NCBI GenBank assembly: GCA_013239625.1
Contig: MU053347.1
Span: 240,669 to 296,970, forward strand
From: Lama guanicoe
Taxonomy: Eukaryota
Length of the DNA stretch: 56,302 nucleotides
Direction: 5' to 3'
In this document: one piece after another, positions 12,124 to 37,220 of the stretch
Layout: every line of letters starts with the position of its first letter
How positions within the stretch are numbered: the stretch's first letter is position 1
Notes under the pieces: model-generated
What the model saw: only the letters and a program-made list of their open reading frames with translations
Databases searched by the model: none
Told to the model about the DNA's origin: nothing
Made by a program: the position numbers and the translations under genes

Positions 12124-12186
12124 GGAGAACATGGTGTTCCAGGAGAAAGAGGACCACTGGGTCAACAAGGACCAAGAGGGCAACCT
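12124..12186 (+). CDS. COL6A4: Triple-helix exon, 63 bp: GEHGVPGERGPLGQQGPRGQP
   Basis: aAG acceptor, GTaagc donor, perfect Gly-X-Y. Confidence 0.92.
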
Positions 12187-13454: not shown

Positions 13455-13605
13455 TTATGAACATCACCACATTGACTTCCCTCCCCACTGCCTCCACTGT
13501 CAACAACACCATCATCACCATCACCACTACCACCGTGAACCATCTGCACCTCCACCACCACCATCACCACCACCATTAACCCCCCACCAGCATCACTGTT
13601 ACTAC
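13455..13605 (+). repeat. Degenerate (CAC/CAT)n low-complexity tract
   Basis: Runs of caccaccatcatcaccaccac. Confidence 0.85.
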
Positions 13606-13639
13606 GGCCACTGTGAGCAGCAGAATCAGGGCCACTTAA

Positions 13640-13880
13640 CAAGTACTGTCTGTGTGCCTGGCATCATGCTTTCCATGCACAATCTCACTTAATCTTTCCC
13701 CAAACCCTGATACTTAGATGATATTATTATCCCCAATTAACAGATGAGGACACTGAAACTTACAGTGGTTGAGTAACTTGCCCAAGGTCACTTCTGTAAT
13801 CAGTGTTGGAAGTGGAATAAAAATTCAGGTCTGTCTGGGTTTATATCATAAGCACTTATTCACTAAATGATATTACCTCT
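13640..13880. mobile_element. MIR SINE; similar relics at ~5390-5590, 8860-9100, 10880-11000, 18330-18440, 24080-24215, 41500-41670, 43750-43965 and 44150-44410
   Basis: MIR core: cagatgaggacactgaaac...gagtaacttgcccaaggtcac. Confidence 0.8.
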
Positions 13881-14310
13881 ATCCTTTCCCCTCCATATTT
13901 GCCTTCATACCTAGAGATTCATCAGTTTGGGAGCTTCTTCCATTGTTACTTTATCCTACAAAGAAAGCAGGTTTAGCTCGAGGGGAACTTTTGTGCAATG
14001 ATTTGGCTTCCTGCAACCAAGGTAGCCTCTTGCTGAGGTCAGAATCTTGCTGAAGATGGGGTTAAAAATTAAAGCACACACCCACACAAGCTTACTTATC
14101 TCATGGTCTTTCAAAGTTTTAAACCCTTATCACCTCCTAACCCTAGGAAGGCAGTCTAAAGTTTATCCTACAAAGGTGGGATAAACCTCCGCCAAGCCCA
14201 TTCTGCCTCCCCTGCCTCTTTGTGCTGCTGATTTATCTGTGTTCAGATGATTTTATTGACCAATTATTGATCTGGATGACTCTACGATTCATTGTGTATT
14301 ATTTTCTTAG

Positions 14311-14361
14311 GGTCTTTCTGGCCCAGATGGATATGGACGTCCAGGAAGAAAAGGAACAAAG
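14311..14361 (+). CDS. COL6A4: Triple-helix exon, 51 bp, with a Gly-X-Gly interruption: GLSGPDGYGRPGRKGTK
   Basis: ttttcttAG acceptor and GTgagg donor; a 51-bp interrupted exon is typical of collagen VI long chains. Confidence 0.92.
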
Positions 14362-14799
14362 GTGAGGGTTACCTTTCAGAGAATTCTCAACCAAGGACCA
14401 GAGTTTTTATTTTATTTTACTAGAATAAGGGTTATTACCCAAGCATATGCCGGAAATCATTTCTATAGGTTGTTTATGACATTTCATAGCTGCCATAGTT
14501 CCCTCCTTAAAAAATAAAAGCTGATTTTATTTCTCCCTTATTTAAAAGCCAAACTCCTTACCTCATCTTCCATCTGTGCCGGATGGTCCCACCCCAGCTC
14601 CGGGTGTGCCAGACCTTTTGTCCGTGTCTTACCTTTGCAAATACTCTTGCTTCTCTTTGAGATGTCCCTCCCCATTTCCCTCTTCTGGACAATTTGTTCT
14701 CCTTTTCTGAGACCACCGTCTTCTCCATGTGGATGCCCCACTGAGCTTCCCCAGACAGAATGCATGGTGCTCCTAAATGCAGAATGCAGTGTTCCTAAA

Positions 14800-15670
14800 T
14801 AAAGCACCTCGCTCCTTCATCTCAGGGAGTGGAGACTCCATCCTGCCAGTTACTCAAGACAGATGCTTCTGTCATCTTAAATAAGTCTCTTTCTCTTACC
14901 CACTGCACTTAATCCATCAACAATGGTGAGCCTGTCTTCACAGTCTGTCCAGCATTGCACCACATCTCACCACCGCCGTTGCCACCCTCTGGGCCAAGCT
15001 AATGTGATTTTCCACCTGGATTAAGGCAACAGCCACCGACCTTTTCCCCCTGCTTCTGCCCCCACCTCCTCTGGTGAGCTCTCCTTTCAGGAACCAGAGC
15101 CATCCTTTAAACACACGTCAGATCCTGTCTCTTTTACTCGAAGCCTGGCTGTGGCTTCTGATGTCACTCAGAGTTGCCCCACTGTTAGATGGCCTACAAG
15201 ACTCCACGTCAGCTGGCCCCTCTGTGAGCTCTCTGACTTCGTCGCCTCCTGCCCCTCCCCCGCCCCTCCTTCTCCTTCACTGCTCCTCCAGCACAACACA
15301 CGCTCACACCCTTGTTCACAGTCTTCACATCCTCTCTCCTCCCCCGGGATGCTCTTCTCCCCAGATATCTGCTTGGTTTGCTTCTTCAGTTCATGCTGGT
15401 CTTTACCCAAATGCCACCTTTACAAAAAGCTTTCACCTGACCTCCTTATATAAAATAGTTACCCCTCTTGCCCCTACCCATGTCATTCTTTATTCCTTAG
15501 TCCTTCTTCCTGAATAGCATTGAGCTCCCCCTGACAGACTGTACATCTCTTCCTCACTAGCAGGTCGGTTCCCTGATAGCAGGGTCTTTGGTCTGTTCAC
15601 CACTGACTTCCTAGTGCCGAGAGGAGTGTCTGGCACAGAGGAGGTGCTAAGTGAATATTTGTTGAGTGAA
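14800..15670 (-). mobile_element. L2 LINE 3' fragment
   Basis: Ends with tctggcacagaggaggtgctaagtgaatatttgttgagtgaat (L2 3' terminus); pyrimidine-rich body. Confidence 0.75.
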
Positions 15671-16057
15671 TACTTGCTTTGTAGTCTGTCTTTGGTCTGA
15701 CAGTGAGCACCTGCCTCCCAGCACTCGGTGTGGTGGCCCTTCCCTTCCCTTTGGTTTCCATTGGATCATCCCTCTGGTTATTTAAACCTATAGATTAAAA
15801 AATGCTTAAGAGGAAAGTTTCATTATCAAGGAGGGAGGAAGAATTTGTAAAACTCAATTACATTGGATAATTGAAGTACAATATGGCTATTTGGGAGTAA
15901 CTCAAGAAAACAATTGTGTGATAGTTTTTCTTTTTTCCGGCGCCTATTTTGAGTCTATTTCCAATGATAGTTTCTTCTTCCCCCCCACCAAGGAATGTCA
16001 AAGAAAGATCTTAATCACATGACACTAAATAAGACCTTATCTCATTTCTGACACTAG

Positions 16058-16093
16058 GGTGAACCTGGATTTCCTGGCTACCCTGGTGCACAA
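16058..16093 (+). CDS. COL6A4: Triple-helix exon, 36 bp: GEPGFPGYPGAQ
   Basis: ctAG acceptor, GTaaga donor. Confidence 0.92.
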
Positions 16094-16201
16094 GTAAGAA
16101 CATATCTTTAAGAACCTGGCACTCTGGTATGCAGAATGTATCATTTGTTTGCACTTGTTATTTTTCTTTACACTCAAGGTCCTACTTTTGATTCTTTTAA
16201 G

Positions 16202-16264
16202 GGAGAAGATGGTGATCCAGGCCCCCAAGGAGAAAAGGGGGCAAAAGGAATCAGAGGGAAGAGG
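16202..16264 (+). CDS. COL6A4: Triple-helix exon, 63 bp: GEDGDPGPQGEKGAKGIRGKR
   Basis: ttttaAG acceptor, GTaaga donor. Confidence 0.93.
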
Positions 16265-17573
16265 GTAAGAACCAAGGGAATGTCCCCAAATCCACAGAAG
16301 GTCACATCATGACACTTTCCTCACAGGAATGTACTTCCACTGGGTTAATGGACTTCTTAGCAGGAAGCCCGTGTCCTCCTCAGGATATCCTGCACCTTCC
16401 TTGGTCACTCCCTACTTAATCCTGCTGTCCTTCATCTTCTGAATGCAAATGCAGCTCACCAAACCATAACGACAGGAAATTGAAGTTGGAGGTTCAGCTA
16501 TGCAATATCAACCTTAAAAAACCAAAGTTGGGGGCACCACTGTCTTTGGTAAATCTGAACATCATTTGGAAGGGTATTGCTTTAACTGCAAGGCAAGCAT
16601 TACCATTTCTTTAAGATTCTTCCAAGGACTAGACTCTTTCAGGTTAGACTGTCAAGAATGTGGCTGCCATCTTGGTGGACTCTGAGTCATGTTTTCCCTG
16701 TGCTTTTTAGAGAATCTACCAGGAAAAGCCCATTCCGTTAGGTTCAGAAGAGTCAGTCTTAAAGAGCCACAATCATTAGCAGCCCTTTTTGTGAAGGGTA
16801 ACCCTGTGGATATCTAAAACTTTGGTTGTTTAGCTGATAAACATTAGAGAGGACGGCCTTCTGGGAAAAGGCCATGGACTAGTGTTCAGGGCAGAAAAGG
16901 GAAATGGAAAGAGGATGTGTACCCTCTGGGCACTCAGTAATTGATGTTTTTATACCCTGGCAAGGACATAAAGAAAAATCTGATCTACGCCTAACTTGGC
17001 TTGCTGCTGGCTAGGATTAGCCTGCTCCCTGCTCGGAAGGGCGTCTCTCTCTTGTTTAAATTAAAAAAAGATAAAGCACCAATTACATGCAGATCACACT
17101 GTATCCATTCAAATACCTGTAAGACTGGCAGTGAGTTGGTGGTTAGCATATACTTTTTCTGAGACACTGAAGACCTGAAGATAATGGGGGAGTTTCTTTT
17201 CTCCTGATGCCTGGCCCTCGATACACGTTTCCTGCATTCTTTTAATTACATGACCTGGAGCCTCAGTGGAGTATTGAGAAGTGATTTAAAACTCTGTTCG
17301 GATGTGTGTGTGCACGTGCGTGTGTGTACACCTGTTGCCAGGGGTCAGGTATGTAGGGGGATTGAGAAGGTTCCCTGAAAGAGACCCCCTTCTCTTTCTA
17401 GCCTCTGAGTCTCACTCCACTGATCACGGTTCATAAACTGGCTGGTCCATAGCAGCCTCGCTGGACCTTATATATATGACACCTTGGAATCCCAGAGCGG
17501 TTCTGTTGGTTTTAATCATGTTGTGTTCACGGTGGGGGTGGTGGCTTATTCCTCTGGTTTTGCTCCTTTTTAG

Positions 17574-17636
17574 GGGAATGCTGGACTTCCTGGGTTTGTT
17601 GGACCTCCAGGAGACCCAGGACCTCCAGGACCAGTG
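17574..17636 (+). CDS. COL6A4: Triple-helix exon, 63 bp: GNAGLPGFVGPPGDPGPPGPV
   Basis: ctcctttttAG acceptor, GTaaca donor. Confidence 0.93.
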
Positions 17637-17875
17637 GTAACATGGACTTCTCATTTCATTTATTTTCAACCTTTCTGTAAAAACAAATAAGGATAAGACA
17701 AGAGGCATCTCTAAGAAGAAATGAATGTTTCAAATGCACAGTTGGAGCTACATAGGGAGTGGGTCAGATTTGCTTTAGAGGACATTAGCCTCAAGTCCTT
17801 ACACAGTATGGTACTTATTAAGTATAGATATTTTGACTTAATGTGGGGAAGATTTTAGAGTGGCTGGAGATTTAT

Positions 17876-17919
17876 TTATTTTTAAATTTATTGAATTACA
17901 GTTGATTTACACTGTTGGG
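17876..17919 (-). mobile_element. Ultra-short retroposon 3' tail
   Basis: T-rich tail plus ttgaattacagttgatttaca; 11-bp TSD TGGAGATTTAT at 17865-17875 and 17920-17930. Confidence 0.75.
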
Positions 17920-18816
17920 TGGAGATTTATGAATCTGTCTAAATACACAAAAAACAATTTGTAAAACTCACCGGAGAGTGAGTTTATCCATGTAATCCAG
18001 ATGCATAACAATAATTATGCAAAAAACAGAAAGAACTCCTAACAAAATCTGACATTTATATAATCTTACCTGAACAGATGATGTTGCAAGCCCACAGAGC
18101 TTTCTAAAATTCCCTGGAAGGTACTTGGTCTGAAAGGAAAGTCTCAAGGCTGTTGTTGTTTCACCCCATATCTCATCCTAAGAGGCTAGGCCATGGTTCG
18201 TGGAGGATGGGATGGTGAGGCAGCTGGGGGCTGGACCAGGTGGTTTCACTGCAGTTTGGGGTTTACCGGAGGGGTGCAGCTGAAATCTTAAAAGTAGAAT
18301 AAAAACATTTTAAAAGCAGAAGGACCACTCATGCCCATTTCACAGATGAGGAAACAAAAGCTGAGAAGATTTTAATGAGTGGCTGGAAGTCACAGATGAC
18401 TACCTTGCAGAGTCCAAATAAGAACAAAGATCTTAAGACTCCCAGAGTTGCTGGGGTCAGGCGGCTCTGTTCTGAAGGCTCGTGTGACACTAGGGAGTAG
18501 ATAGAGTGGTGGGAGGTGGCCGGAGGAGAAAGGATGGGAGGACTGAGGTCTACCTGAGAGCTGCCTATAAATGGTCCTGGGGTCTTGAATGGTCCCTTCC
18601 TGAATATGTCCCAGACTGTGGCTTGGTCTCTAAATGAATGATCTTCAAGGAGTCTTTATGTACCATCTCCCTGGGCATCCTGCACTCCAGGGTTTGGAAC
18701 TCATCCCCTACACACTCTGACTCCTTCCTTCAGGAGTCAGACAGAACTCCAGGCCCAGGAGTGATGCAGAAGGTGTTCTGTGTAACACGGTGAACCTTCT
18801 CAAACTCTCCTGTGAA

Positions 18817-19878
18817 CTTTTTTTTAACACCTTTATTGTGATATGGTTCCTGTACAGTAAAAGTACAGTTTGTTTTGATAGATGTATACACCCAAGAAAC
18901 CACAACCACAATCAAGGTAGCTAACATTTCCATCACTTTCCAAGAGGTGCAATTTTTGAATTCCCAATTTGTCTCTTCCCACCCTCTTTACCTGTTGGTA
19001 ACCATAAGTTTGTTTTCTGTGTCCATAAATCTGTTCTTGTTTTGTAGATAAGTTCATTTGTGTCTTTTCTTTTTTTTTTTTTTAGATTCCACATACTAGC
19101 TTTATCACATGGCATTTTTCTTTTTCTTTCTGGCTTACTTTACTTGGTATGATGATCTCCAGGTCCATCCATGTTGCTACAAATGGCATTATTTTATTCT
19201 TTTTTATGGCTGAGTAGTATTTCATTGTATACCACATACTACAGCTTCTTTATCCAGTCATCTGTTGATGGACATTTGGGTTGTTTCCATGTCTTGGGTA
19301 TTGTAAATAGTGCTGCTATGAACATTGGGGTGCAGGTGTCTTTTTGAGAGTTATATTTTTCTCCNNNNNNNNNNNNNNNNNNNNNNNNNNNNNNNNNNNN
19401 NNNNNNNNNNNNNNNNNNNNNNNNNNNNNNNNNNNNNNNNNNNNNNNNNTTCCATAGTGATTAGTTTACATTCCCACCAACAGTGTAGGAGGGTTCCTTT
19501 TTCTCCACAGCCTCACCAGTATTTATCATTTGTAGACTTCTTAATGATGGCCATTCTGACAGGTGTGAGGTGACACCTCATTGTAGTTTTGATTTGCGTT
19601 TCTCTAACAATTAGTGATGCTGAGCATCTTTTCATGTGCTTGTTGACCATCTGAATGTTTCCTTTGGAGAGATGTCTATTTAGGTCTGCCCATTTTTGGA
19701 TTGGGTTGCTTGTTTCTTTGATATTAAGGTGTATGAGCTGTTTGTGTATTTTGGAAATTAGTCCCTTGTCGGTCACATCATTTGCAAATATTCTCTCTCA
19801 TTCTGTAGGTTGTCTTTCAGTTTTGTTGATGGGCTCCTTAGCTGTGCAAAAGCTTTTAAATTTAATTGGATCCCATCT
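18817..19878 (-). mobile_element. L1 fragments: old L1M 3' end (~18817-18945) joined to a younger L1 ORF2 C-terminus/3' UTR; N gap at 19365-19449
   Basis: The minus-strand ORF 19513-19776 ([12 protein letters not shown]...[12 protein letters not shown]...HMKRCS...[12 protein letters not shown]) is the L1 ORF2 C-terminal region. Confidence 0.92.
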
Positions 19879-19939
19879 TCACCGTAATGTATTGAAATTC
19901 CAGAATCTTGCATTTTGAACCCATTTCTGTTCCTTCCAG

Positions 19940-19975
19940 AGCATCAAGGGCCCCCAAGGTTTGGCAGATATGATG
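19940..19975 (+). CDS. COL6A4: Last triple-helix exon, 36 bp: SIKGPQGLADMM
   Basis: ttctgttccttccAG acceptor and GTatgt donor; the first codon is AGC where Gly is expected. Confidence 0.87.
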
Positions 19976-20954
19976 GTATGTGAAGATTTTAATTCTAGAC
20001 TTGATTATTTTCAGAACACAGAGCTTTCCACTTTCATAAAATGGAACTCTGTAAAGGTTCCTTAGTTTCTTCTTTTACAAGTTCTTAGTTTATAGACTTT
20101 GCTCTGGTAGGTTATGACCAAATCAAATAAAAGGAGCAGAATAATATTTTAAATGCTGAAATAATATCTTAAATAATTTAAAGTGTAGAATAAGAGTCTA
20201 AATCTGGATATTTTAAAGTAACACTAGTTGACGTAAAATGAAAGACTTTGAGGCTACTAGCCCTGTGCAAAAAAAAAAAAAAAGCCTTTTGTAAGTTCAA
20301 AAATTGCTTATAAAGTATTTATAAGTCAACATGTAGTGTAGTACAGACCACTCTGTCTTATGGTCCACCTGGAACCAATTTCAAAAGTTACGGTGATTCT
20401 TCATCTCCCAGGAGCAAGGTACCTATGGGGGAGGCGGGGGCATATCTCGGGGCACTTGAGAAGCCAGAAGTGGTGAGGTCGAGGGAAGAACAGGATTGAG
20501 AGGATGAAGCAGAATTCTAGGGGAGGTGTTGGGGTTGGAGGGTCTTGGCCACCATTCTAAAGAAGTGTCACAGAAATCACTAATACACAAGCTCCAAGAC
20601 TTGAAGGCATTCCTCTGCCTTCCTTGCTGAGATTCCTGGAACTCAACTTCTTCAAAAGCAGATTTGATTCCTTCAGGGGAAAAAAAAGAGGTCCCCTCAT
20701 CTGCCTGTCTCTAATCATATAGGCACTCTATTATATATAAAATGCTACAAATATTTTAAAATACTCACTGGATCTAGAATGATAACTGCTGGGGAGTTCC
20801 ATCTGCTGCAGGAACTTTGGGGTTTCCTTTTGTGGATTCAGAAGCTTAAGATAGGCACTGATAACATCCATATGGCATTTCTAAGTCATGAGGGTGAGGA
20901 GAGATATGCTTCAAATTAAATACCGTTTCCTCTCTTTCTTCATCTTTCTCACAG

Positions 20955-20991
20955 CCTTGCGAAATTATCCATCTTGCTCAAGAAAACTGCC
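20955..20991 (+). CDS. COL6A4: Post-helix linker exon, 37 bp: PCEIIHLAQENC + 1 nt
   Basis: Long pyrimidine tract plus cAG, GTaagt donor; conserved Cys motif. Confidence 0.9.
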
Positions 20992-21373
20992 GTAAGTTGT
21001 GTGGGAAAGGCTCCAAAGGAGCAGTGGTGTGAAGTGGGGATGGATCATGGGCTGGGGACAGAAGTCATCTGGGGATTTGACTGAGGTGGTCCATCATAAA
21101 AGGCTATTATAAATTAACATTCAGCTCAGTCCCTGCCTTGGGTAAGTCATCGTCCCCAGTGTGGTCTCAGAAATGAAGTGGGTGAAAGGCAGGAAGAAAA
21201 ATTCCACCATGATATGGCACCTCATGCAACACACTGACAATTACGCACCTGCGTGTCTGAAGCTCAGCGCTTCTTTATCACAAGACAGGCAGAGAGGAGC
21301 TCTGTTCTTTTATTTCCTCCGTTTAAAGAAGAGGGATTAATGGAGAGCCTTTAGTAATGAACATGACCTTTTG

Positions 21374-21575
21374 CATTTTTTTTTTACATTTTTTAATTGA
21401 GTAATAGTTATTTTACAATGTTGTGTTAAATTCTAGTGTAGAGCACAATTTTTCAGTCATACATGAACATGTATATATTCATTGTCACTTTTTTTTCACT
21501 ATGAGCTACCACAAGATCTTATATATTTTTCCCTGTGCTACACCGTATAATCTTGTTTATCTATTCTGCAAAATG
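21374..21575 (-). mobile_element. 5'-truncated lineage-specific L1 3' end
   Basis: Poly-T then acattttttaattgagtaatagt; TSD TGACCTTTTG at 21364-21373 and 21576-21585. Confidence 0.8.
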
Positions 21576-23384
21576 TGACCTTTTGAATTAACATTTGTTT
21601 TAAAAATGGAAATATGAAACATTGAATTCTAAGTAATGCCTTGTCATGTTCCCAGATTGGAATTCCTTTACTGTCCTTAATGTTCTCTGGGATATTTGCA
21701 TCCTATAATATGCACATTTCTCTGCTCACTGGCAACAGGAAGAGAATGCTGATCTGGCAAATTGCTTAGCTGGATTTTCTCCACTATCATCCTGCCCTGT
21801 AAGATGCTAACTCTTCCACGTTCTGTCCATTCCCATCCAGTTGCAGTTCAAGGATATCTGGAATCTTTTTTCCTTGAAATCATAAAGAATAATACCATCA
21901 TCTTGACCACCAAGGGAAAGAGTCTCAGAGTTGGCTGTATAAAAAGTTAAACCCCTTTTGCATTCAAGAGCACTGTGTAGTCAAAACCAAACAGAAAAAG
22001 GGGGAAAAAATATGCACTACAAGCCATGAACCTAGGCAAAGGTCCTAACTTCTTTACCCTATCATGTTGAAATATGTAAACTTGCTGCTACTCAACCATT
22101 TTCATCTACAAACATGGAGATTTCATATTTGCTAAACCTAAATGTTAAAAGGTCTTTTAGACTGAAAACAGGCCAAAGACATAAATGAGGATTCAGAAAA
22201 GAAAAAATACAATAAACCTGCCATTGTTTGACCTCACGAGAAGTCAAAAAATACAAATTAAAATGAGATACTCTTTTGTGGCTCAAATTGGAAAGATTTT
22301 TAAAATGAAGGGAAAAAAATCCCTATCCAAAGCTGAGAAATGTAGGCACGTCCATTGGCACAAATTTTCTGAAGAGCCATTGGGCAATGCATATCAGCAT
22401 TATCAGAACTTATATGGGGCTGTAATTGGATAGATATGCACAGACGCACTTTCCAGTAAGGGATGCTGGTGGAAGAAGTTATGAGATATCCATGTTACGC
22501 CAGATGACTTTGCTCTCAATTTATTGTTGGAAAGAATAGATGTTTATCACACAATAAGGGGGAAAAAAAAGATTCAGAATAGAACATACCCTGAGCTCCA
22601 AGTTTTATAAAATAAAACAACAAAGTATATCTGTGCATATGTACACATACATATGATAAATTAAGGGTGATTTTAATTTTTTTGCTTTCTGCTATTTTCC
22701 ATGAAAATAACTTGTGTACACACACTCACATAATTTAATTAATGTATTTTGTATTATATGTATGTACTTTAAGGTGTGTGTGTGTATGTGCGTGGGTATG
22801 TGAGATGTGTGGGTTGCAGAGTAGCTCAGGGTATTAGGTTGAAGGTGAGCACAGTGTGAGCTCAGTGCCCAGAAGCACAGACACAAATGTAGTTCCCAAG
22901 TCAGAGCCTGGATGGGGCAAGTCAGGGCTGCTGGAACTCCACGGTGCTCAGAGAGGCAGTCTCTTTGTATTCTCTTGCTCTGTCATTGGGGCGAGGATGC
23001 TATTTCCCAGTCACCTCGTGGTCCAAGATGTCTATCAAGCTTCAGCCAGCAGGGAAAGGAAAGAAAAGGAGAAGAACATTGTGCCCGCCAGGTTTCTGAT
23101 TCTATTATCCAGGACTAAGTAAGTTGGCTACCCACCCCGGGAAATATCGTCTTTGTTCCAGGCAGCCAGACCCCTGGCCAGAGACTGGGGTTCTGTTCTG
23201 GAAAAAAGGGAGAGTGGGCATTGGGGAGCAAGTCGAGGTCTCTGCCACACTCAGGCAGGAGGCAGGGAGGCTCTAGTGTCTCAGAGGAGATGGTTCTCAG
23301 CCAAAGCCCTCACGTGTCAAACACGCTGTTGCCCATGGTAACTAACGGTGTCTTCTCTTCTCTCCGAAATCGTCCCCCTTCCAG

Positions 23385-23396
23385 CTTGTTCAATAG
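23385..23396 (+). CDS. COL6A4: 12-bp micro-exon (phase 1-1) completing P-C-S-I-G
   Basis: ccccttccAG|CTTGTTCAATAG|GTaaat; joins the flanking exons in frame to give ENCPCSIGVSRCP. Confidence 0.85.
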   Translation, partial: LVQ

Positions 23397-23484
23397 GTAA
23401 ATAACATTCCTTCTTATTCACGCCCGCCTTCCCCTGTTGAGAGGCCTTACAGACAATCCCAAATCTGCGTGTCCATGTGTCTAG

Positions 23485-23978
23485 GTGTCTCCAGATGCCC
23501 AGTGTTCCCGGCTGACCTGGTCTTCACCTTGGACACATCAAATGACGTCTCCCAGCTGGAGTTTGAGAGGAGGAGAGACATTGTTGTCTCTCTGCTGATG
23601 AAGATAGACATAAGTGGGGGTAACTGCCCCACGGGGCCCCGGGTGGCTGTGGTCTCGTACAACAGCAGAACAGACCACCTGGTTCGCTTCTCCGACTACC
23701 GGGGCAGGCCCGCGCTCCTGTGGGTGCTCGGGGAGGCGGCCCTGGCAGCGCCCTCCGGCAGCAGGAGCCTCGGGGGTGCCATGAGGTTTGTGGCAAGACA
23801 CCTGTTCAAGCGCGTGCACTCGGGCCTTCTGCTCAGGAAGGTGGCCCTGTTCTTCCAGGTGGGCTGGGCCCAGGATGTCGACACCATCAGCACCGCCACG
23901 CTGGAGCTCAGCGCCCTGGGCATCACCTCTGCCATCATCACCTTCATGGAGGGGCACAACCTCCCGGAGGCTCTGCTA
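23485..23978 (+). CDS. COL6A4: C1 von Willebrand factor A domain exon, 494 bp
   Basis: Lies within ORF 23469-23999 (CPVFPADLVFTLDTSNDV...CPTGPRVAVVSY...LGGAMRFVARHLFKRVHSGLLLRKVALFF); ctAG acceptor, GTacgt donor. Confidence 0.93.
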
Positions 23979-24244
23979 GTACGTGGGGGCCGTGGCTAGG
24001 CGGGTGGGTCCAGGGTGAGTGCCATGTGCCTCGTGAACACCGTCTTATTGAATTCTTCCCTGGACTCTACAAGGTAGGTGTTACCATGCGTCTCCCTTCC
24101 AGAGAGAAGAAATCCAAGGCTTAGAGAGGTTAAGTCTATCATCAAAGGTCAGATATCTTATTAGGGGCGGACTGATTTGACCTGCCTTCAGAGCCTGTGC
24201 TGAAACACTGTGCTAACCGGTATCATGAGGTCGGTAGAATGGAC

Positions 24245-24497
24245 TTTTCTTTCTTCTTTTTCACTCGGGCTATAAAATCCATACCCAGGTAACGTGCGGG
24301 GAGGGCGCACCAATCCCGTCTACAGCTGGATGGATGCTGACATAGGGTTAAACCCTGCAACCAAGACATGGTTCAAGACATTGAGCACCTTCAGCGTTTC
24401 ATAAGTTTTCTCTTTTCTCTTTCTGAACCATAAGATGCTCCTGGCTTCTGTCACAGTCAGACAGTTTCACCTGTTCGGGGTCTTCATGCACACTGAG
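24245..24497 (-). mobile_element. Degenerate old L1M 3' fragment ending at the compositional junction
   Basis: T-rich start, then ataaaatccatac, caaccaagacatggttcaagacattgagcac and gacagtttcacctgtt; recalled L1M 3'-UTR pattern. Confidence 0.45.
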
Positions 24498-25070
24498 TCC
24501 TGAATTTTAAATGCCTATGCTTGCCTGGTTCCTCAAAATGCTCTTTGGAACAGCTTTACCCTTTAACTATTTCAATCATTAATGAGCTAATAAATCTTTG
24601 AAAAGCATGCACTTGGTATTTGGATGTAGCAAATATTTTAACGAGAAAATTATGATTTGATATCTAGAAACTGGAAGCAATATTTTGTAAGAAAATTTAT
24701 TTACAGATAAGTTTTTAATTTCTATACCCTCTATGCCCCTAGTTTCCTTGAAATGTATTTTATGACTCTGCAATGAGAAAGATGTCTTTCTTATCTTATA
24801 AAAATAAATGTTAGCTATTGTAACTTTCACTCTTGAAAAATATCAAAAGATATATATATATTAGCTTAAAAATCATTTATATATCATCATGGTCTTAATC
24901 ATGGTCTGAAGGCACATCCTTGGGAGTCAGAGAGAAAGAGCATAGGTATGGAAATCTCTGTGGCATATTAATATGGCTTGTATTGCATCATGCATCCTTT
25001 AATATCTAGTAAAAATAAAATTGACTTTGAATTATTTATCTATATTTGAACATTTTGATATCATTTGGTT

Positions 25071-25170
25071 TCTCTTTTTTTCTTTTTCAAATGGAGGTAC
25101 TGTGAATTGAACCAAATACCTCATGCATGCTCAGCATGCTCTCTACCAACTGAGCTATACCCTCACCCCC
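25071..25170 (-). mobile_element. tRNA-derived SINE, camelid Vic-1-like
   Basis: Reverse complement reads GGGGGTGAGGGTATAGCTCAGTTGGTAGAG (A box)...GGTTCAATTC (B box)...A-rich tail. 20-bp TSD cattttga(t/a)atcatttggtt at 25051-25070 and 25171-25190. Confidence 0.9.
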
Positions 25171-28100
25171 CATTTTGAAATCATTTGGTTAATTATCTGC
25201 CATCCATCCAAAGGAACCTGATGTCTGTTACTCTGTTATTTCCTGTTGTAGTTTAAATGAATTAATAGACATCTTCTAGCTGTCCCAGAACAGAGTTTTC
25301 ATTCCTTCTAATTTTCAAATTAGAAAGACGGGAAGTTTAAATTTTATTCTTTACAATAAAGAGGAATCAAGTTTTCAGGAAATAAAAATGGCAGTTTTAG
25401 TGAAAAAAAGAGTTAAAATATAGCATTCACTTTATCATGTACATTTTAATGTGAAGAGGATAAACTATCAGATGGACCTCAAGAAAAATGTACTCTAAAT
25501 TTTTTTATTTTCTAAAAAATATCTGAACCCTTCACTTCTCAGGCATTACAACTGTTGGGTGTCTATTCAAATGGATTTATGATGTTCAGTTTAAAATGTA
25601 TGAGTCACATGATTAATTAAAAAGCTGTTACATAATTTCACTCCTGATACTTCAACAACTACTTCAATACTGAGGACATAGTGCAGAAGGCTCAGTATAG
25701 ACCAGTGACTAGGGTATGAATTTACTATGCAAAAATCACATCTGGTTCTTATTTCAGGATGGACCAGTATAAAATCCTAGTGGCTAAAAATTAAACCACT
25801 ACTAAACCAAAAATGAACTCAGAGCAGAGAAATGGGATGTGGTCATCTTTATAGATGTATATTGAACATTTGCTTCTATTTGGTCATAAGTAGATACAAG
25901 TTAGACACCGTAAAGATAGTCAACTAAGGTTCCTAGTCTTTTCACGTTCTGTGCATTTATCCTCATAATGCCAGAGGCTCCTTTGATTTTGATAAAATAG
26001 TAAATAAAAGTCAGAGGAGAAGGAATTTCCCCTTTGCTATAATGAATTTGTTGGCATACAAATTGTAGAAAATATTGGTCAGCAAAATGGGCCATGTTTC
26101 AGAATCAGAAACAAGAAAAAAGTAAAATATCTCTTCAGCAGAGCGTCAGTGTCAATATCAGCAAAATCTCTCTCCAGTCCTGCCGCCGCCTGTAAGTGGT
26201 GACCAGATTGGAACTAAAGGCCCACATGGCAATTGTAAAAAAACTTTTGAAGTGACAGGGAGGGTAAACTGTTTCCAGCTGCAGTCAATCCTAGAAGACC
26301 ATTTTTTGAAGGTCATAATTTTGCCCTACATTCTATTTCAATAACTTATATTTACAGTATTATATTTGAATTATAATTCATTTGCATGTCCTCTTTTGTC
26401 AAAATGAATATCAGATTCTAGATAGGAAAAACAAAATTGCTTGCTGTGAAGAAAACAAATCCTTAGTATTTAATTGGATGTATAATGATAATATCTGTAA
26501 AACTAATAGCAAAATCCAAATATGCTTTATTGAAAAGTTCTTTAGCATCTCTCTTATCATCTCTCATTTCCTCTGATGTACTAGGCCTAAATTGCCACTT
26601 ATATTATGTGATGAAATACAAAAACCTACATGTTGCCTTTTGTTTTATCTGGGAGCAAGTAGATTGTACAAATAAGCTTGAGTGCTCTGTGAAAGAAAAT
26701 GTGACCATCTGTAGCAATTCATATTGTGAACTTGTTACATAGATAATTATTATGATTAGTGTTACAATTCAGCAATCAGAAGTCTGTACAGGATCCAGAG
26801 GAACACAGCAGGATGATACTCCATTTAAATGGGCTCAGGAAAAATGCAATGTATTTGACATGCTCCACAAAAGAGGCAGAATCAATTTGACATACCGTAC
26901 AGTCATTTTTCTCTCTCCCAGTAGCTTGGCTTAGGAGCAGCATCATGCACAGAAGGGAGCTTCCTATACAGAACCGAGGTAATTGTATTTGCATAAGATT
27001 AGATCCACCCTTGGGTACATTCAAGATATTACTAGAGTTCCCTTTCTCCCAGCAGGACAGATTTCTCTAAAGACATACTGCTTACATTACATAGGACTCA
27101 GGAAACTAAACTTCCCCATGTCTCTAACTCTAAGTGGGTTCAAATGCAGCCATTACATTTAGATTGGACTATGTATATTACAAGAAAAAAACACTCCCCT
27201 CCTTAAAGCTCTTTGTAGCTGTCAGTATCAATTATTCTTTGAAAAATCAGGGAATCTTAATGTGAGAAATGTAAACTTATTTAAATGTTTTCTAGCACCC
27301 AATGGTTTTCTGAGTTTGAAAGATAAAACTTTTTATTACCATGCTGATAAAATCTGTAATTATTCAATTTTTTAAAAGCTGTTGTATATCTCTAGNNNNN
27401 NNNNNNNNNNNNNNNNNNNNNNNNNNNNNNNNNNNNNNTTGGTGGGAGTGGAGAGGGAGAAGGCAAAGGAGTCCTACAGACATGCAGGTGGATAGTTGTT
27501 CTCCTAAACATCTGGACCTATTTACTAGGTAGTTGCTATTCTGGGATAGAGCCATCTTATATTTATAAACTCCCATGGTGGAATACTAATAATGTAAAAA
27601 ATGGAATGCCTTTACTGCATAAAATATCAAAACTTGAAAATGTTAATTTTCAGAATAATCAATTATGAAATCACTAAGATGGAGCATCATTTGTTTCTAT
27701 TGAATAGAAAATTTAAAAAGTAGGTAAATGTCTGGCAAAAGTTTTTGAAGACATACTAATTTCAAGATATAGTCTCAAATTTTAAGCTATATATTTCGTA
27801 ATGGAATACTGTAAGATGGAATGTGATAAGTTCATTATATGACATTTTCTTCAAGGTATCCAACACATACTTATGGTCTATTTTGTGCCTGTATTTCAGG
27901 CAACATTTCATTAAAACTGTGTATATATTCTGGAGGGGCATGATTATATAACATCATAGTCTCTGTGTTTTTTTTCCCTTTATATATCATATGATTAATT
28001 TTTGAATAGATTATATATACACATGGCATACTTATTTTATAGGTATAAAATAATTGACAAATTAAAAAAACAACAACAACTGTTCCATGGCCATTCATTC

Positions 28101-28639
28101 ATTTCCTTTCTTAACTAGGAGCTACTTCGTTTTCAGGAGTATTCTACCTATTGTTTCTTTGATTCTTATTTTTAGCAAAATTATACCACTTATTGTTGAA
28201 AGAGTTTCATAGCTCTATGAATCTTGCACCAAAACAGGTATTTTGTTCTGCTCTCCCATACTTCAGATTGTAAACCCCAGATACCGTACTCCATTTAACA
28301 TTTCAGCTGTTCCTTCTGTTATTTACTCCATTTTCTGAATCACATGGGTATCCTATTCTTTCCTAATTATTCAGTCATAAGCAGTATCTATGGACCTGCC
28401 AAAATGGAAAACACAGGAGAAAAATTGAGCTTTCTTATGCTGCCCTCTCTCTGCAAGAGCTCGTATTTACAGCCATATGTATAAGCATATACCTATGTAC
28501 ACATACACACACACAACATTTCTTCCAAAAAAATTACATAAATCAGATTCTTAGTGTTTAACAGTTAACTCAATAGTCAGTATTTGCATTATGTAACTAT
28601 GTAAATAGTATTCATAGCAAAGCCACGTAGAATATGCCA

Positions 28640-29790
28640 TGTAGTATATTAACATTATATTTCATATTCTGCCCAATTCACTGTTGCCCTAGGGTTACTT
28701 TTTTCATTTGGTCACCTCTCAGTTTGACCATCACAAGTTCATCCTCAAACAATCTTTAAATGTCTCCTCAGAGGACCTAAACACGTTCCTATTCAGTTTT
28801 ACTCTTTCTTGGAGGTCTTCCTCCTGAAGACCTTTGTCCTCCAGCTCCAGTCTGAATCATTGGCTGTCTAGACTTCCTGCTGGGTGGTCATCTTGGGACT
28901 TCCTTCTTTTGCCTATCAGCTTTCACTCTTCTTCTGCGGGAAAGCTCTTTCCAGTGTATCCGTTCTTCCACTTTCTCTGCGCAGAGCACAAACTCCAGTC
29001 AGCTTCTTGAGGATGAATATGTGCATCAAGACTTTGACTATCTGAAAATCCTTTAGACAACCTTCATACATGGTTGGTGGTCTGGCTGGATCCACACCAT
29101 CTTGTCTCAGAAATTTGAAAACATCATTCCACCTTCTCCTAGTTTCCAATGAGAAGGCTAAGGACGTTCTGTATCATGATCCTGTAGAGTGGCCTGTTTT
29201 CTATTCTTTCCCTCTGTAAGAGTTTAGACTCTTCACTTCATAACCACTGTTGTGAAATTTTAGGGTGACTGGTTTTGGTATAGGTGTTTTTCTGGTCATT
29301 GCTATGGGGGCTTTTCTGATTCTTCTGGAAAATATTATTCAGTTATGGGACATTTGCTGTTAAATATAAATGTTCACTTCCATATTCTCTGTTATGTTTC
29401 TTGGAACTCTTATTTTTAGCTATTGATACTTCTGGACTGGTTCCCTAACTGATATATTTTTCTTATATATTCCCATGTCTTTTGATTTTAAAACTGGATA
29501 TTTTTATCAACTGTATCTTTATATATATAGTTATACATACACACTTTATACACACGGAGTTAACTCTGTTCTTTAAATATTTTTTATTATAGGATTCTAT
29601 TTTTTTCATACATATAATCATTTTAAATTTTCTCTCTGAGATTTCTGTTTACAAATTGTTCTCTATTTCCTCCAAATTCCCATTTTCCCCTTTCTTTGTT
29701 AAGACTTTTTTATGTTAGAGGCTTTCTTCAAACATCTGATAATTTTTTTTTCATTTGTTTATATGTGATCGTGAAATGCTAAAATTCTGA
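28640..29790 (-). mobile_element. Very old L1 (L1ME-like) internal fragment
   Basis: T-rich degenerate antisense L1 text; the minus-strand ORF METRRRWNDVFKFLR resembles L1 ORF1. Confidence 0.55.
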
Positions 29791-30139
29791 GTATGTAAGC
29801 TGAGATTTTCAACTACTCTTACTTGTAAATTCTGAAATTAAGTGAAATGAACATATTTTGACCACCTGGTGAACATCTTGCCTTCTGAAACTGTGGAAAG
29901 TAGGTAACTCAGTGTTTTTTTTCTGGCATGAAGAGAGAACCCTTATGGAGAAAACAGAAGCATGTGTAATTAACAACTACATGAGGTCAGATGAAATAAA
30001 TAAAATTCTTATTTTTTTTTGTTTTTTTTTACTTATCAGTTGAAAGCTACTTAGGTGTTAATCTGGAGTGCAGGATTTTTTCTGGCTTCTGAATATTTTT
30101 TAAGAAACCATCTCAGAAGCCTGTATTTTCATGTTAAGA

Positions 30140-30640
30140 TTTATGCATACATATGATGACTCTTTATATGTGAATAATGGAAGAGTGTATGATTAAGGTG
30201 ATTTTTGTGGTTGACTTTCCAACATCCTTTCCACTCTACATGACTTACCTTGGTCAATATGGCAATCCTATGCCCCTCGGCAGTGATTTACATACAAGCC
30301 TATCCTGGCAAATGATTTGTGAGCAAAAGTTTTACAATGACTTTCAGTTCTCCTTAGAGAACATGGAAAGAGATAGTCCTTTTCTTCACCTGCATATTTT
30401 TATATCTTAATATTTCATCTGAATCAACTACAGTCTTGCATCCATGAACATAAAGTCAAACTGAACATGGTGGAAAAGAAAGGTAAAAAGAACCTCCTGT
30501 CTTTGAGAGCAGCATTGGACCAATGTGTCTAACAGTCCTAGACTAACTCTATACCGTTGTTATATTAGATAATAAATATTCTTATTCAGTCAGGTTGAGT
30601 CATGTATTCAGTTACAAACATCTCAACTGATACAATAAAT
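30140..30640. mobile_element. MaLR (MLT1-like) LTR relic
   Basis: atggtggaaaagaaaggtaaaaagaacct...ctttgag, ending with ttacaaacatctcaactgataca. Confidence 0.5.
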
Positions 30641-33289
30641 TGCTTTATATTTAATACACAGGTTATAGTTCTTATAGGATGATGTACTGTATCAGCATAC
30701 TTACTTTCAAAGTAAATGTAAAAAAATCTGCTCACACTTTGTGGTACCATAAAATTAGTTTAGCTAATTGAAAGGAAGAGAGATTTCAGGCTATGGTAGT
30801 ATTTCAGATTATATGTAAATTTGAAAATGGACAACTGAATGAGCTTTCTTTCAGGAGGATTTGAAAGTGCAATCCTGTATGTAAAATCTGGGAGGGAGGA
30901 TTTCTTGCTGGCAGGATTATTATAGATGTACTACATTATACTAATGTTTTAAAAATAGAGCCATTTTCTGTGGCATTTGCTATGTCACAAATACCCTTTA
31001 GAATACCACTGAGACATGGATTACTTTTGTCAAATGTTTATGTGATTGCATTGTTGTAATTTGAAGTTAATACAAAAATAATAGTTATTAAAATGTATTG
31101 TTTATTTTGAAAATAGTGCTTATGGATATTACATATTTAATCTGAACAACAGCGCTGCAGTGAAGCTTAGGAAATAATATTGTAAATGATATTATATAGA
31201 TTTAAAAAATGAATGCAGATGGAAATTAAGATACTTGTACTAACAGGTGGACCTCCCATGTCTCAAGCCAGCTTATCTGGTAATGATCTACTCTAAAGCT
31301 TGATAAAATTCAATAATAAGCTCAGCACTTTTTAATGATTCTCACTGAAACATTCCTTATACACAACAGTATGCCCTCTGTTTGCTTCCCCATCCCCTTT
31401 CAGGTTTAGATTAATTTTGAGAGGGAAGCTGAAGGTGGAAGTAATCCAGTGAATCTGAAGGTGCAAATAATCCAGTGAAAAACATTTAGAAGGGCACTAG
31501 CTTTGATTGCAGTAAATAAATTTTCTTTAAAAATCTACGTTATTGTTAGCAACAAAATCACAAATATATAGAAGACTAGAAAGGTTGAGTCTATATTCAG
31601 GAACAGGTCATTCTGAGGGATTAAACCATGATGAACTTTAATGCCAACCAATTTGGGATTTTACTTAATATCTTCTTATTCTGGAGGGCAGAACAGTTTT
31701 GTGAGGAAATGGCCTGGAGCATGCCTTTGTGTATCTCAATATACAGTCTGTCAGTGCAGTAGTACTTCTGTTTGCTTGAACTACACAAAACTGTCAGTAT
31801 CTGACCACTCAGTACCTACAAAATGGCAATTCCATCAGGTTCAACTTAGCACACTTGGGCCTTTGTTTTTGCTAAAAAATATCTGAGAAGATGAAAGAGA
31901 ATAGATTAGATTATCAGTTTAAATTGTACTGACAACACTTTAAAAAATAATTCTTGTATATATAAAGCTTTACTTAATTTGGCATATTTAGTTTATACAC
32001 TTTTTGTGACTAAAATATTCATAACATAGAATCTTAACTTTAAGTAACAAATGCTTGCTCAAGCATTTTCATCTGTGTAGATGACAAGGTCCGTATGAGA
32101 ATGTCAAATCAACAATGTTTTTTGAACTTTAGGGTATAATATTAGCATCTAAATTTAAGAATACAGATATTTACTTTATGCTATATTGTCAGAAAATCCA
32201 TAAATAGCATCATTTCTAATTCAATGGCTCATTGTGAAAAGAACCCAAGAAAATAACAAAAATTAATTCAGGAAAAAAATATTCCAATTAAAATCCAGGT
32301 ATTAAAATTTTCTTTGATTTTGAAGGCAGAGACTTTGTGCTAGTCATCAGCATGTTCCTAGCCTTCTCCTAGCATGTGTACTTTGTGTTTAATATGCACT
32401 TCATGGAGTTCTTGTATTATGTTTTGTATAAAAATGTGATTATGCTCAGTGATTCATGATAAATGGAACTTAGAGTGGGAAAAAGCCTAGATAATAGACA
32501 AATATTTTAACAGTATATTTGACATTTTACAAATCGTAAACTTATACCTGTTTACTTACTATAGCAATGAGATCCTTTTTGATAATGCTTATGTTTTCCT
32601 AGGACTTTGATTTACATTATTTGATTTAGTTTTATTTTAAGGTTTTACTCGCACTTAATTCAGAACTATACCAAAATCAGTTTTAAGAAAGCATTCCAAA
32701 ATTCTGCATAGAAAAAGTAACTACTAAAACATTTTCCTTTACTGTTCTTAAATTTAAGGAGTAAAGTTGAAAATTATATATATTAGGTATAAAATATTCT
32801 TATTTATACATGCAACATTAAAGATGCTTCAAATTTTAAATAGTTTAAATAATAACTTAATTAAGATTAGTTCACCTGCCTTAAAATTCATCCTTTTAAT
32901 GTTTGCAAATCAGTGGTTTTTAGTGTATTCACAGAGTTCTGTGGCCATTCCTACTGTCTAATTTCAGAACATTTTCATCATCCCCTGCACCCATTAGCAG
33001 TTTAAGATTATAATTATTTTCAAAGAATAAAACAAACTACACATACTTTTTCCTGAACACAATACTAACACAAAAACTAAGACTATTTTCATCTCCTAAT
33101 AGAAAGCAATTATTAGTGAAAGTGGTGGTTTCCCCTTAGGTGTGCTGCTACACAAACTGCTCTTGGCAGCTTTGACTTCATGCTTGGGAGAAGACTTCCA
33201 AGGGATAATATAATAATAATATTTTCTGAAAATTTTTAGTCAATTTGGACTTGTAGTTTCTATTTTCTTAAATGTCTTCCTCCTGTGTG

Positions 33290-33790
33290 CACAAAGAATA
33301 TGATAACTGGGTGCATCAATGACCTTCACCCTTCCTCTACCCAGGGACTTTGCCATGTAACTTTGTAGTGCCCTCCCTCTCAGCTCTTGAATGTCACATT
33401 ATTTGCTCTGGCCAACATGACTTTTAGCTGATACAATACAAGCAGAGGCATGAAGTGAGCTTGAACTTTTGGGAAATTTTCTCTTGCCATCTGCCATTGC
33501 TGTAATTATTTTTTAAGTAAGCCAAGGATAACCTGTTGTTCCTAGGAGAAGATGAGACACGTGGATCAGTGGGAACCAGCTCAGCTGAGAGACCCAGCTG
33601 TCCAGCCACAGTCAGCCTAGATTGGTCAATAGCCAAATGATGCCATCTGTGAAAAAGCTCAGCCAAAATCAGCAGTCTCCTAACCTAACCAGTTCAGAGA
33701 TGTGAGCAATGGATGTTTATTGCTGTATATGTCTCTAGCTTCAGTAGTTGTTTGTTACCAAGTATTATGCTGATAGTAAGTAACTGATGA
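33290..33790. mobile_element. MaLR (MLT1-like) LTR relic
   Basis: gatgagacacgtgga...cccagctgtccagcc...gttgtttgttac...gtaactgat. Confidence 0.65.
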
Positions 33791-34221
33791 GAAATGCAAA
33801 GAATACGACATCAGTTTAGTAAGTTAGTAATTTCTCAAGCGATGGACAGGGTATATGGATAGTATTTTCTTTAATCACCATAACCAAATCCTTTCTTGAC
33901 ATATCTGAAACACTAGTAAACTCTGCCCCTGGCCCAGATGGAGTGAGTTGGTTAAAGGAGGAATTCCCTTAGTCGTTGGTTTAATAGGACACAATATTCC
34001 CCCTCAATCACAAAATAGGTCAAGGGAGAGTATTCTCTTTTGGAGCTGAAAATATTTTATACAGGAAGTAATCAACACAGAATCAGGGAAGAATTGAAAT
34101 AAATGAATACTGACATCGTAATTATTTTTAAAAATTTCCAACCAAACATGCAGAGTGCTTCAAATGGTTTGACTGCACTGACTGACTATACTTCTGGGGG
34201 CTCCAATTCCAGCCACACAGG

Positions 34222-34577
34222 ATGAAAGTGTTCCTGGGCCAGCCCACATTGTCAGGGTTTCGGTTGGGAGGAATCAGAGCAGGGGCATACCTCAGGCAAC
34301 AGAAAAACTAAAGGGCCACTTAACACCAAGTTCCTAAGAGCATGGAGCCTCAAGCTGAGGACACAAGATCAGTCAAGGAGGCAAAAAAAAACTTGCAAGA
34401 ATGAAAGTGTTCCTGGGCCAGCCCACATTGTCAGGGTTTCGGTTGGGAGGAATCAGAGCAGGGGCATACCTCAGGCAACAGAAAAACTAAAGGGCCACTT
34501 AACACCAAGTTCCTAAGAGCATGGAGCCTCAAGCTGAGGACACAAGATCAGTCAAGGAGGCAAAAAAACTTGTAAGA
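34222..34577. repeat. Near-perfect direct tandem duplication, 179-bp period
   Basis: atgaaagtgttcctgggcc... starts at 34222 and 34401; the copies differ only in A-run length and one C/T near the end. Confidence 0.97.
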
Positions 34578-36364
34578 AAGAAAGTAGGAGCCCAAAACCA
34601 GAGTCATGGGCTGAGGAGACCTGGAATCAAAGAACAGCAGTGTCTGGAGTAACAAGATATCATGAGCTATTCACACAAAAAGGACTGAAAATTGCATGGC
34701 TTTCATTCACACAACTCTGCATACTTAACATATGCTGGTTTAAAGCTGCAGTCACTGCTATTTCTTCAAGTGACATTCCAGTCTCAGTAATTTTCACCTG
34801 TGCATGTAAATATGACCACTTGGAAGGCCATAATTCCCACTTCTAGATTGGTCTGATACACATTTTAGAACCATCCTGACCTGAAGAAATGAAAAATAAA
34901 GCTAAGAAATATTACTCAATATGGGCATATTTCTGGAAACTATTTGCCACAGGAATCAGAAGAATATTAGACTGGCCTACCAGTTTATGTCAAAAGACCA
35001 TGGAATTTCTAGCACTTGTGGTCAGAACATCTTAAAAATAGTCTGGAATGGAAGGAGTGCTGGTTGAGAGAGGAGGCAGAATACAGGAGACCAGGAACGG
35101 CTGAAGTAAGATGACAGCAGGTAGCAAGAGACGGACCATCTGAAAAGAGGGGTGGAAGGAAACTTGAGAACAACCTAAAAACTACTCTTTGAAACAGAAA
35201 ACTAAAGATTAAAAGAAACCAGATGTAGAATATGTGTATATAGGACAAAGAAAATAAATCCAAACTGGAAATAAACTAGACGTGACCTGGTCAGTTAGGA
35301 CAAAAGCTCCACACAGATTTACACTAGATGAAACCTTCTTCTCCCAAATAAAAGAAAGTGTGATTTTCTAGGTCAAAATAACTGACATTAGATCAGTCAC
35401 ATGAATTCTAACTTTTGTTAAATATGATAGACTAAGCACATATTTCTGCTCATAAAGAGCCACTGAAATAATAGACTCGAGAAAGAGAAACAGCAAAGAG
35501 GGGACAAACCTGCCCAAGGGCTGGAAGCTGGGAAAGGGCAACCATCAGACATTCCAAGGACCTGGAACACGAGGCAGAATGGGCAGAATAGTTGGAAATG
35601 AGCTGGAGATATCACAACATGAGTTCTAAGAGTCATCCCAGGGCAGCCTCAGAGAAGCAAAACATCTAAGTCAGCAGCACCTCGGAGATTCTTTATTTTC
35701 TCAGGTTTCCAATGGATCATATATTGCCCTGATTATTTACTATAAAGTGAAAATTCTTTAACATGAATTAAAACAAAATGTCCTACACTTTGTACCTTGA
35801 AACTCCTTCTCTGGGAGTTCTAGCACAGACTCCAGGTCTGTGTATATTTAAATCCTGCAGGTGATTTTGAAGGACATTCCTGGTTTCAGCCACTGCCTTC
35901 CTGAGTGGCTGCAGGTGCTGACCGTTGGGCTCCTTGAATTAAACCAATTAGTGTTTTGCTGAGTAATGTGTGAGTTTAGGTCACAGGCTAAATATTTTTA
36001 TTTAACAAGTTGCTTTATGTTGTTTATAGTTCTAAAAAAATTTAATTATGTAGTGCAAAATAGTTTGTATTTAAAGATTTTTACAAGAAAACACATTACA
36101 GTTTTGTAGGGTTAGCTACAAGCATTCCAATTTTCATTCTAACTTCATTACATATACATAAAATTGTATATGTAAACTTTGTAAATATGTAATATTACAT
36201 AATATATAAATATACACTAATTAGATATAATGTCTATAATATAATGTAGTTAGTTATAGAATGTGCACTATATAAATGTATATTTATATATAAATGTAAA
36301 GATAGATAGAAATACTGTAGTTAGAGGTCACTATGCCAGATGCTCTGGAGAACAGTTTGGTGAT

Positions 36365-37175: not shown

Positions 37176-37178
<3 letters not shown>

Positions 37179-37218: not shown

Positions 37219-37220
<2 letters not shown>

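Follow-up and report, generated by a model that had tools for sequence, protein, structure and literature searches.

The 56,302-nucleotide stretch of guanaco (Lama guanicoe) DNA analysed here, which we call the window (C682:240669-296970), in all probability represents the 3' end of a COL6A4 copy that arose by segmental duplication, is truncated and has been joined to an unrelated duplicon, X. Its collagen exons stop at 23,978 because the copy lacks the linker, C2, unique-region and Kunitz exons. The full-length gene, which we refer to as the parent, persists on another scaffold of the same assembly, and the window as a whole is a mosaic of at least three duplicons and an endogenous retrovirus.

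Results

COL6A4-type exons of the copy

The window forms the terminal 56 kb of a 297-kb scaffold, C682, which ends at 296970. With its 55,231 contigs, the assembly consists of gapped scaffolds; the sequence is mammalian, and the window itself contains four runs of N, of 68, 85, 43 and 226 bases. Exons were mapped by ungapped tblastn with the camel alpha4(VI) protein P0057, residues 1520-1765 of which served for the triple helix. This placed twelve triple-helix exons and a C1 exon on the forward strand:

4787..20990, + strand: triple-helix (Gly-X-Y) exons, twelve in number, all open, sharing 86-100% identity with camel alpha4(VI)
4787-4840, 4952-4993, 8628-8696 and 10482-10547, + strand: triple-helix exons 1-4 (tblastn, P0057)
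11525-11590, 12121-12186, 14311-14361 and 16058-16093, + strand: triple-helix exons 5-8 (tblastn, P0057)
16181-16264, 17574-17636, 19943-19984 and 20955-20990, + strand: triple-helix exons 9-12 (tblastn, P0057)
23481-23978, + strand: C1 VWA exon, final COL6A4 exon of the copy, frame open (tblastn, P0057; Pfam VWA)

No stop or frameshift was seen in these 13 exons. The open reading frame at 23397-23999 is the sole long one near the breakpoint with a domain match (Pfam VWA, E=1.7e-15), and a splice donor, GTACGT, begins at 23979, directly after the C1 exon. A first-pass annotation of this DNA had described exons spaced at most about 3.6 kb apart up to 23978 and none thereafter, and both parts of that description hold. 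The widest gap, from 4993 to 8628, is 3.6 kb, and neither a later COL6A4-type exon by tblastn nor a Pfam-matching reading frame between 24.5 and 50 kb was found (0 of 45 stop-to-stop frames of at least 70 aa). Likewise, five proteins, including three with C2 and Kunitz domains, were searched by tblastn; beyond 24,177 no remnant of C2, the unique region or Kunitz was recovered at E<1, and the lone later match, at 48.9 kb (E=0.74), is noise. The 43-N gap at 27,396 falls inside a stretch that is collinear with other copies of X and so conceals no exon, in keeping with the earlier estimate that the N gaps are too small to hold one.

A full-length COL6A4 locus on another scaffold

The exons absent from the window are present elsewhere in the assembly. 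A genome search with a C-terminal alpha4-type protein located the following on scaffold C6476:

C6476:41345402-41345917: C1 exon of the parent
C6476:41356462-41356551: linker exon of the parent, 30 aa
C6476:41357847-41358539: C2 exon of the parent, its aligned part starting at 41357853
C6476:41360245 and 41360820: unique-region exons of the parent
C6476:41365743-41365919: Kunitz-like exon of the parent

The linker, C2, unique-region and Kunitz-like exons lie 10.5-20 kb downstream of C1, in order, and their aligned parts are free of stops. The C2 exons that the first-pass annotation had proposed to seek by tBLASTn are therefore missing from the window and present, as an alpha4-type C2, on C6476, collinear after C1. 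This C2 exon was single-copy in the genome search, and the N7-N2 VWA exons were found only on C6476, with N1 also on C682 and C1369, counts that are a floor under the stricter prefilter used. More generally, the genome searches score best candidates only (for example, the best 37 of 23,347), such that all copy counts given here are lower bounds.

The Kunitz domain is a feature of alpha4(VI), and Pfam PF00014 is present in most of the named alpha4(VI) matches. The best named full-length relatives come from many mammals, three Camelus species and alpaca among them, and are alpha-4(VI) collagen chains; eutherian alpha4(VI) matches are 61-100% identical, and alpha4(VI) is closer than alpha5 or alpha6. 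With N-terminal VWAs, a short triple helix, C1/C2 and a Kunitz-like exon, the parent has the architecture of COL6A4 save for one Kunitz cysteine: in the Kunitz-like exon (C6476:41365752-41365916), Ser replaces the second conserved Cys, and an additional Cys-Cys pair is present. No Pfam Kunitz match is found in the Camelus alpha4(VI) models, which place their final exon elsewhere (41363218-41363337), and decay of the Kunitz module may be under way in camelids. Farther downstream on C6476 are two more paralogous C1/C2 pairs, 30-51% identical to the alpha4 query, which we infer to be COL6A5 and COL6A6.

In this assembly, the parent also carries an in-frame TGA in a 63-bp triple-helix exon (C6476:41339236-41339298, the homologue of window 17574-17636) whose splice sites are intact. 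Gly (GGA) is found at this codon in the window copy, in its paralogue on C1743 and in the protein models of alpaca and camel, and the TGA could be either an erroneous base or a genuine nonsense allele. A second TGA, flagged in an N-terminal VWA exon, was set aside, as it falls in intron read-through outside the exon. Within the same 63-bp exon, the parent and the duplicates read 'FVGPPG', where the full-length alpaca and camel models read 'FVGTPG'; the parent's reading may reflect gene conversion or the mixing of paralogues during assembly.

The window copy matches this locus over almost its entire collagen portion, introns included:

191..24506, + strand: COL6A4-derived duplicon, portion inside the window (collinear blastn blocks, 94.4-95.4% identity)

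This 24.3-kb stretch aligns to C6476:41321859-41346440. The whole duplicon, C682:210005-265174 (about 55 kb), matches 56.8 kb of the parent (C6476:41289673-41346440); its left end is situated before the window, beyond a run of N (C682:237837-240668) that immediately precedes the latter, and corresponds to the parental intron between the N2 exon (ending at 41287813) and the N1 exon (starting at 41291756). The duplicon comprises N1 (located shortly before the window starts), all of the triple-helix exons and C1, and is without the 5' end of the gene, including the N7-N2 exons, as well as the linker, C2, unique-region and Kunitz exons. That the window might be a partial duplicate had been one of the possibilities raised by the first-pass annotation, and the roughly 95% identity to a complete parent elsewhere, introns included, bears it out. 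At least three further copies of the C1 exon exist beyond those of the window and the parent (on C1743, C5941 and C34662). The 5' part of the duplicon is multi-copy as well, since another COL6A4 N1 VWA exon lies at C1369:248403-248750, 87% identical to camel alpha4 and with one TAG inside.

A base-sharp breakpoint between two unrelated sequences

Alignment to the rest of the genome shows the breakpoint to be base-sharp at 24,505/24,506, about 8 bp from the position near 24497 at which the first-pass annotation had placed it:

24503..24506, no strand: junction of the COL6A4 copy with X; the match to the parent extends through 'cctgaatt', and that to X begins at 'ttttaaatg'
24505..38492, + strand: duplicon X piece, 14 kb, AT-rich, with no Pfam-matching reading frame

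The fall to AT-rich composition that had been remarked on at this point is equally sharp, from a GC of 0.478 to 0.300 across the 500-bp flanks, and 0.416 over 1-24,505 against 0.342 over 24,506-38,492. The match to the parent ends at window 24,506, equivalent to C6476:41346440 and 532 bp beyond the last aligned C1 codon, while identity to X starts at 24,505, leaving a 2-bp microhomology (tt) common to both. The two sides of the break match different scaffolds when mapped separately within this assembly and, for this copy, are not collinear, in line with the proposal that they belong to different blocks.

We probed the genome with 800 bp centred on the break and scored 12 of 12 candidates. The parent stops at base 401 of the probe, and the match of four unfused X copies sets in at base 400; the junction is spanned by C682 itself and by C1743 (94%) only. 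Short left-side fragments are present on C29051 and C5941, and the other three candidates are weak matches, shorter than 100 bp, to the beginning of X. Because this probe yields just 12 candidates, a young high-copy repeat can be dismissed for the junction-spanning sequence. The unfused X copies stay mutually homologous to the left of the boundary too, so that X is ordinary duplicated DNA cut at that point; a transposon, or the terminus of a mobile element, was considered for X and rejected on these grounds. Between the parent flank and the X flank no homology was found, the best being 12-nt matches with E=0.36, and NAHR between shared repeats was rejected for this reason. Judged from its sequence, the junction fits non-homologous or microhomology-mediated end joining as a putative mechanism.

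A genuine break of a single COL6A4 gene after C1 in this lineage, by inversion or translocation as in humans, would account for exons that end at 23,978 and for the mapping of the two sides of 24,505 to different scaffolds, and it has a precedent in the human gene, which was split by an inversion according to PMC6031366 and PMC10049728. We nevertheless regard such a break, which the first-pass annotation had put forward as an independent event in another lineage, as extremely improbable. The assembly keeps a full collinear COL6A4 locus on C6476, from C1 through the linker, C2 and unique-region exons to the Kunitz-like exon; the window differs from that locus by about 5%, introns included; at least three further copies of the C1 exon are present; and full-length alpha4(VI) models exist in alpaca and three Camelus species.

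The junction in a second copy and in public DNA runs

The fusion of the COL6A4 duplicon to X is not confined to one scaffold. C1743 crosses the junction in a single N-free block, equivalent to window 27828-19450, at 93.6% identity. Additionally, we examined Logan contigs from four public DNA runs (X1, X2, X3 and X6) that carry four organism labels and come from three studies, although X1 and X2 seem to belong to a single data set. Junction-bridging contigs occur in all four, spanning 24353-24547 or 24353-24574 and reaching 43 to 70 bases past the junction with 3-7 mismatches. In X1 and X2, a loose end at 24505 carries sequence of the type found to the left of X (1 mismatch and a 1-base gap relative to the X copies of the assembly), showing that fused and unfused forms are both present. 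At 24396, 24415 and 24462 the bridging contigs have the base of the parent and C1743, whereas the window bases are private; the contigs therefore establish the junction for the copy family and not for the exact window copy. The highest share of the window's sampled words in any public run was 0.56, and four possible RNA runs contained only 5-8% of them.

These data bear directly on the concern, also voiced in the first-pass annotation, that a COL6A4 contig might have been glued to an unrelated repeat at 24,505 during assembly. A scaffold of short-read type with N gaps, and a window at a scaffold end in a duplication-rich region, are circumstances in which a misjoin might be suspected. Yet there is no N at the junction, C1743 crosses it likewise, and contigs from four runs in three studies bridge it with at least 31 bases on each side, and we consider a misjoin very unlikely.

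Duplicons X and Y and an endogenous retrovirus

To the right of the junction, the window continues as a succession of further blocks, of which X (24505..38492, above) is the first and is followed by:

38499..47915, + strand: duplicon Y piece, 84-90% identical to C55226:8949951-8967810
50593..56302, + strand: degenerate endogenous retrovirus of gammaretrovirus-like type, cut by the scaffold end and present genome-wide in many copies (89-95% identity)

Unfused copies of X on C4153, C8494, C2809 and C5183 are 87-92% identical to the window. C73, at 97%, groups with the fused copies, and its contig ends before the junction; C789 (96-97%) covers a portion farther to the right only. Homology to X stops at 38,489-38,492 in all copies compared. 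At 25071-25170, the window, C1743, C2809 and C8494 have a tRNA-like SINE of about 100 bp, which C4153 lacks in its copy of X; at the SINE, read depth rises steeply to about 1,000-2,400, which identifies the element as a member of a high-copy family.

Within Y, about 8 kb of C55226 are missing from the window between blocks. Several unplaced contigs of 200-300 bp match the Y block at 97-100%, suggesting unresolved extra copies or haplotigs. All six of the retroviral reading frames examined with Pfam match Gag_MA, RT_RNaseH, RNase_H, integrase or TLV_coat. The proviral frames are broken, Env TM is also matched, and MA adjoins the RT-RNaseH region, which suggests an internal deletion. A related provirus lies at C682:201522-205805, 90 kb upstream on the same scaffold.

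The intron remnant and truncated alpaca models

Between the C1 exon and the junction, the copy retains the start of the parental intron, which is of interest in light of the annotation of alpaca:

23979..24504, + strand: remnant of the C1-to-linker intron, which holds all alternative 3' ends of the alpaca models listed
24589..24594, + strand: AATAAA located 84 bp inside X, the first to follow the cryptic terminal exons

A cluster of 32 multi-isoform alpaca models of the NCBI annotation, represented by P0002 (XP_0728140xx, XP_0728214xx), includes 31 that are named 'uncharacterized protein'. Among the 15 of these 32 that were listed, all 15 end within the equivalent of window 23,979-24,345, inside the intron remnant, through a read-through to VRGGRG* or with VGVTMRLPSREKKSKA*, REEIQ...GGLI*, AIKSIPR* or ...AGWMLT*. 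The AATAAA at 24589 is a predicted poly(A) signal that may serve such ends.

Like the window copy, these alpaca loci combine scrambled-frame collagen exons and a C1 VWA with a cryptic end in the intron remnant, and one alpaca terminal exon is identical to window 24103-24177 at 25 of 25 amino acids. They differ in that their C1, in the 15 of 32 models listed, is nearest to C5941 (98-100% identity) and not to the window (86.7-88.5%), with C1743 in between (91.5-93.3%), which makes them sister copies of the window locus. In contrast, the full-length alpaca alpha4(VI)-like model P0167 (2223 aa) has a C1 that is 100% identical to the C6476 exon.

Divergence and state of the copy

On the left side of the junction (19450-24504), Jukes-Cantor (JC) distances are 0.037 between the window and C1743, 0.039 between the window and the parent and 0.039 between C1743 and the parent. 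These distances are star-like and do not fix the order of primary and secondary duplication. On the right side (26124-27828), the window, C1743 and C73 group together at 0.020-0.028, while this fused group stands at 0.065-0.085 from unfused X, and unfused X copies are 0.067-0.093 from one another. The right-side distances thus indicate that X was already a diverged family at the time of the fusion and that the fused unit was duplicated again soon after.

The same divergence speaks to the possibility that the copies are uncollapsed haplotypes, that is, alleles of one rearranged locus instead of paralogues. Such a reading would accommodate the many contigs of 200-5,000 bp that match at 95-100% (C5941, C5020, C29051, C35362, C17457 and C12998). 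The window, C1743 and the parent, however, differ pairwise by 3.7-3.9% in substitutions alone, far beyond allelic divergence, and in alpaca the longest contigs encoding the full-length model P0167 (124.7 Mb) and the truncated, uncharacterized cluster (86.2 Mb and 1.1 Mb) differ as well. We therefore hold an allelic origin to be exceedingly unlikely and treat the copies as paralogues.

The C1 duplicates have M30R and R83G in common. A derived E-to-D change at C1 position 42 (E42D) is common to the parent and all copies and absent from Camelus, and this offers a weak hint that the duplication may postdate the split of Old World from New World camelids. A Camelus ferus protein of 543 aa (P0001, 'chain-like', ending in VRGGRG) was considered as an Old World duplicate and rejected: its C1 is identical to that of the full-length C. 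ferus P0058, so P0001 is a fragment model of the parent.

Between the copy and the parent, C1 differs at 25 of 495 nucleotides and 15 amino acids, with a pairwise Ka/Ks of 0.55. Ten of the 15 amino acid differences are derived in the window copy, none in the parent, and 5 are ambiguous. Near the junction, many of the bases private to the window are T at sites that read C in the parent and in C1743. With all exons of the copy in the window still open, it is the direction of substitution that suggests the copy may be under relaxed constraint, as a pseudogene-like fragment.

Discussion

Using a combination of exon mapping, whole-genome alignment and contigs of public DNA runs, we find that the abrupt end of a collagen VI gene in the guanaco assembly is the product of a lineage-specific mosaic segmental duplication of an ordinary kind that yielded a truncated gene copy. 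We propose that an internal COL6A4 segment of 56.8 kb, extending from the intron before N1 through the triple helix and C1 to a point 532 bp into the next intron, was copied, and that non-homologous end joining, involving a 2-bp microhomology, would then have connected its 3' end to part of X, which already existed in multiple copies. The fused product would subsequently have been duplicated again to give at least the copies on C682 and C1743, an order of events that is our suggestion, and C5941, C5020 and C73 are probably further pieces of the fused unit. Transcripts of such a unit, if any, would be expected to terminate in cryptic exons within the remnant of the intron.

Primate genomes are known to contain segmental duplications of mosaic structure, in which duplicons are juxtaposed and genes are partially copied. 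The arrangement described here resembles them in its long, intron-bearing blocks, 84-97% identical to their sources, in the sharp abutment of the COL6A4, X and Y blocks, in the renewed duplication of the fused product and in the poor assembly of the region. Unlike the primate cases, it is found in a camelid host and involves a collagen VI chain gene.

A parallel at the level of the gene is provided by humans, in whom COL6A4 was inactivated during primate evolution by an inversion that left two pseudogenes, COL6A4P1 and COL6A4P2, as described in two reviews (PMC6031366 and PMC10049728). The same gene is affected in both cases, and both involve a 5' gene part without the 3' exons. In contrast with the human situation, in which the only copy was broken and the gene lost, the full-length locus persists in the guanaco. 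Moreover, the guanaco piece is an extra copy that is also without the 5' end (N7-N2). A full-text search, which left most subscription journals outside its reach, returned no papers that link COL6A4 with camel or alpaca.

For genome annotation, our findings explain the camelid models named 'collagen alpha-4(VI)-like' or 'uncharacterized protein' that end after C1, and they caution against reading such models as a loss of COL6A4. A three-block mosaic duplication with junctions defined at the level of single bases is also useful for assembly quality control in this region.

A further reading, which we consider unlikely, is that the truncated copies constitute a small transcribed family in New World camelids that modulates or interferes with collagen VI assembly while the full-length parent decays. 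Its product would combine a partial triple helix and the C1 chain-association domain with a cryptic-exon end derived from the intron remnant and X, and the change of GGA to TGA in a triple-helix exon and the lost Kunitz cysteine would be signs of the decay of the parent. If true, this would represent a second independent route to the loss or remodelling of COL6A4 in mammals, beside the human inversion. Should the copies prove to be expressed, or the parental nonsense codon to be real, the locus would bear on the dispensability of alpha4(VI) in mammals, a chain that humans already lack.
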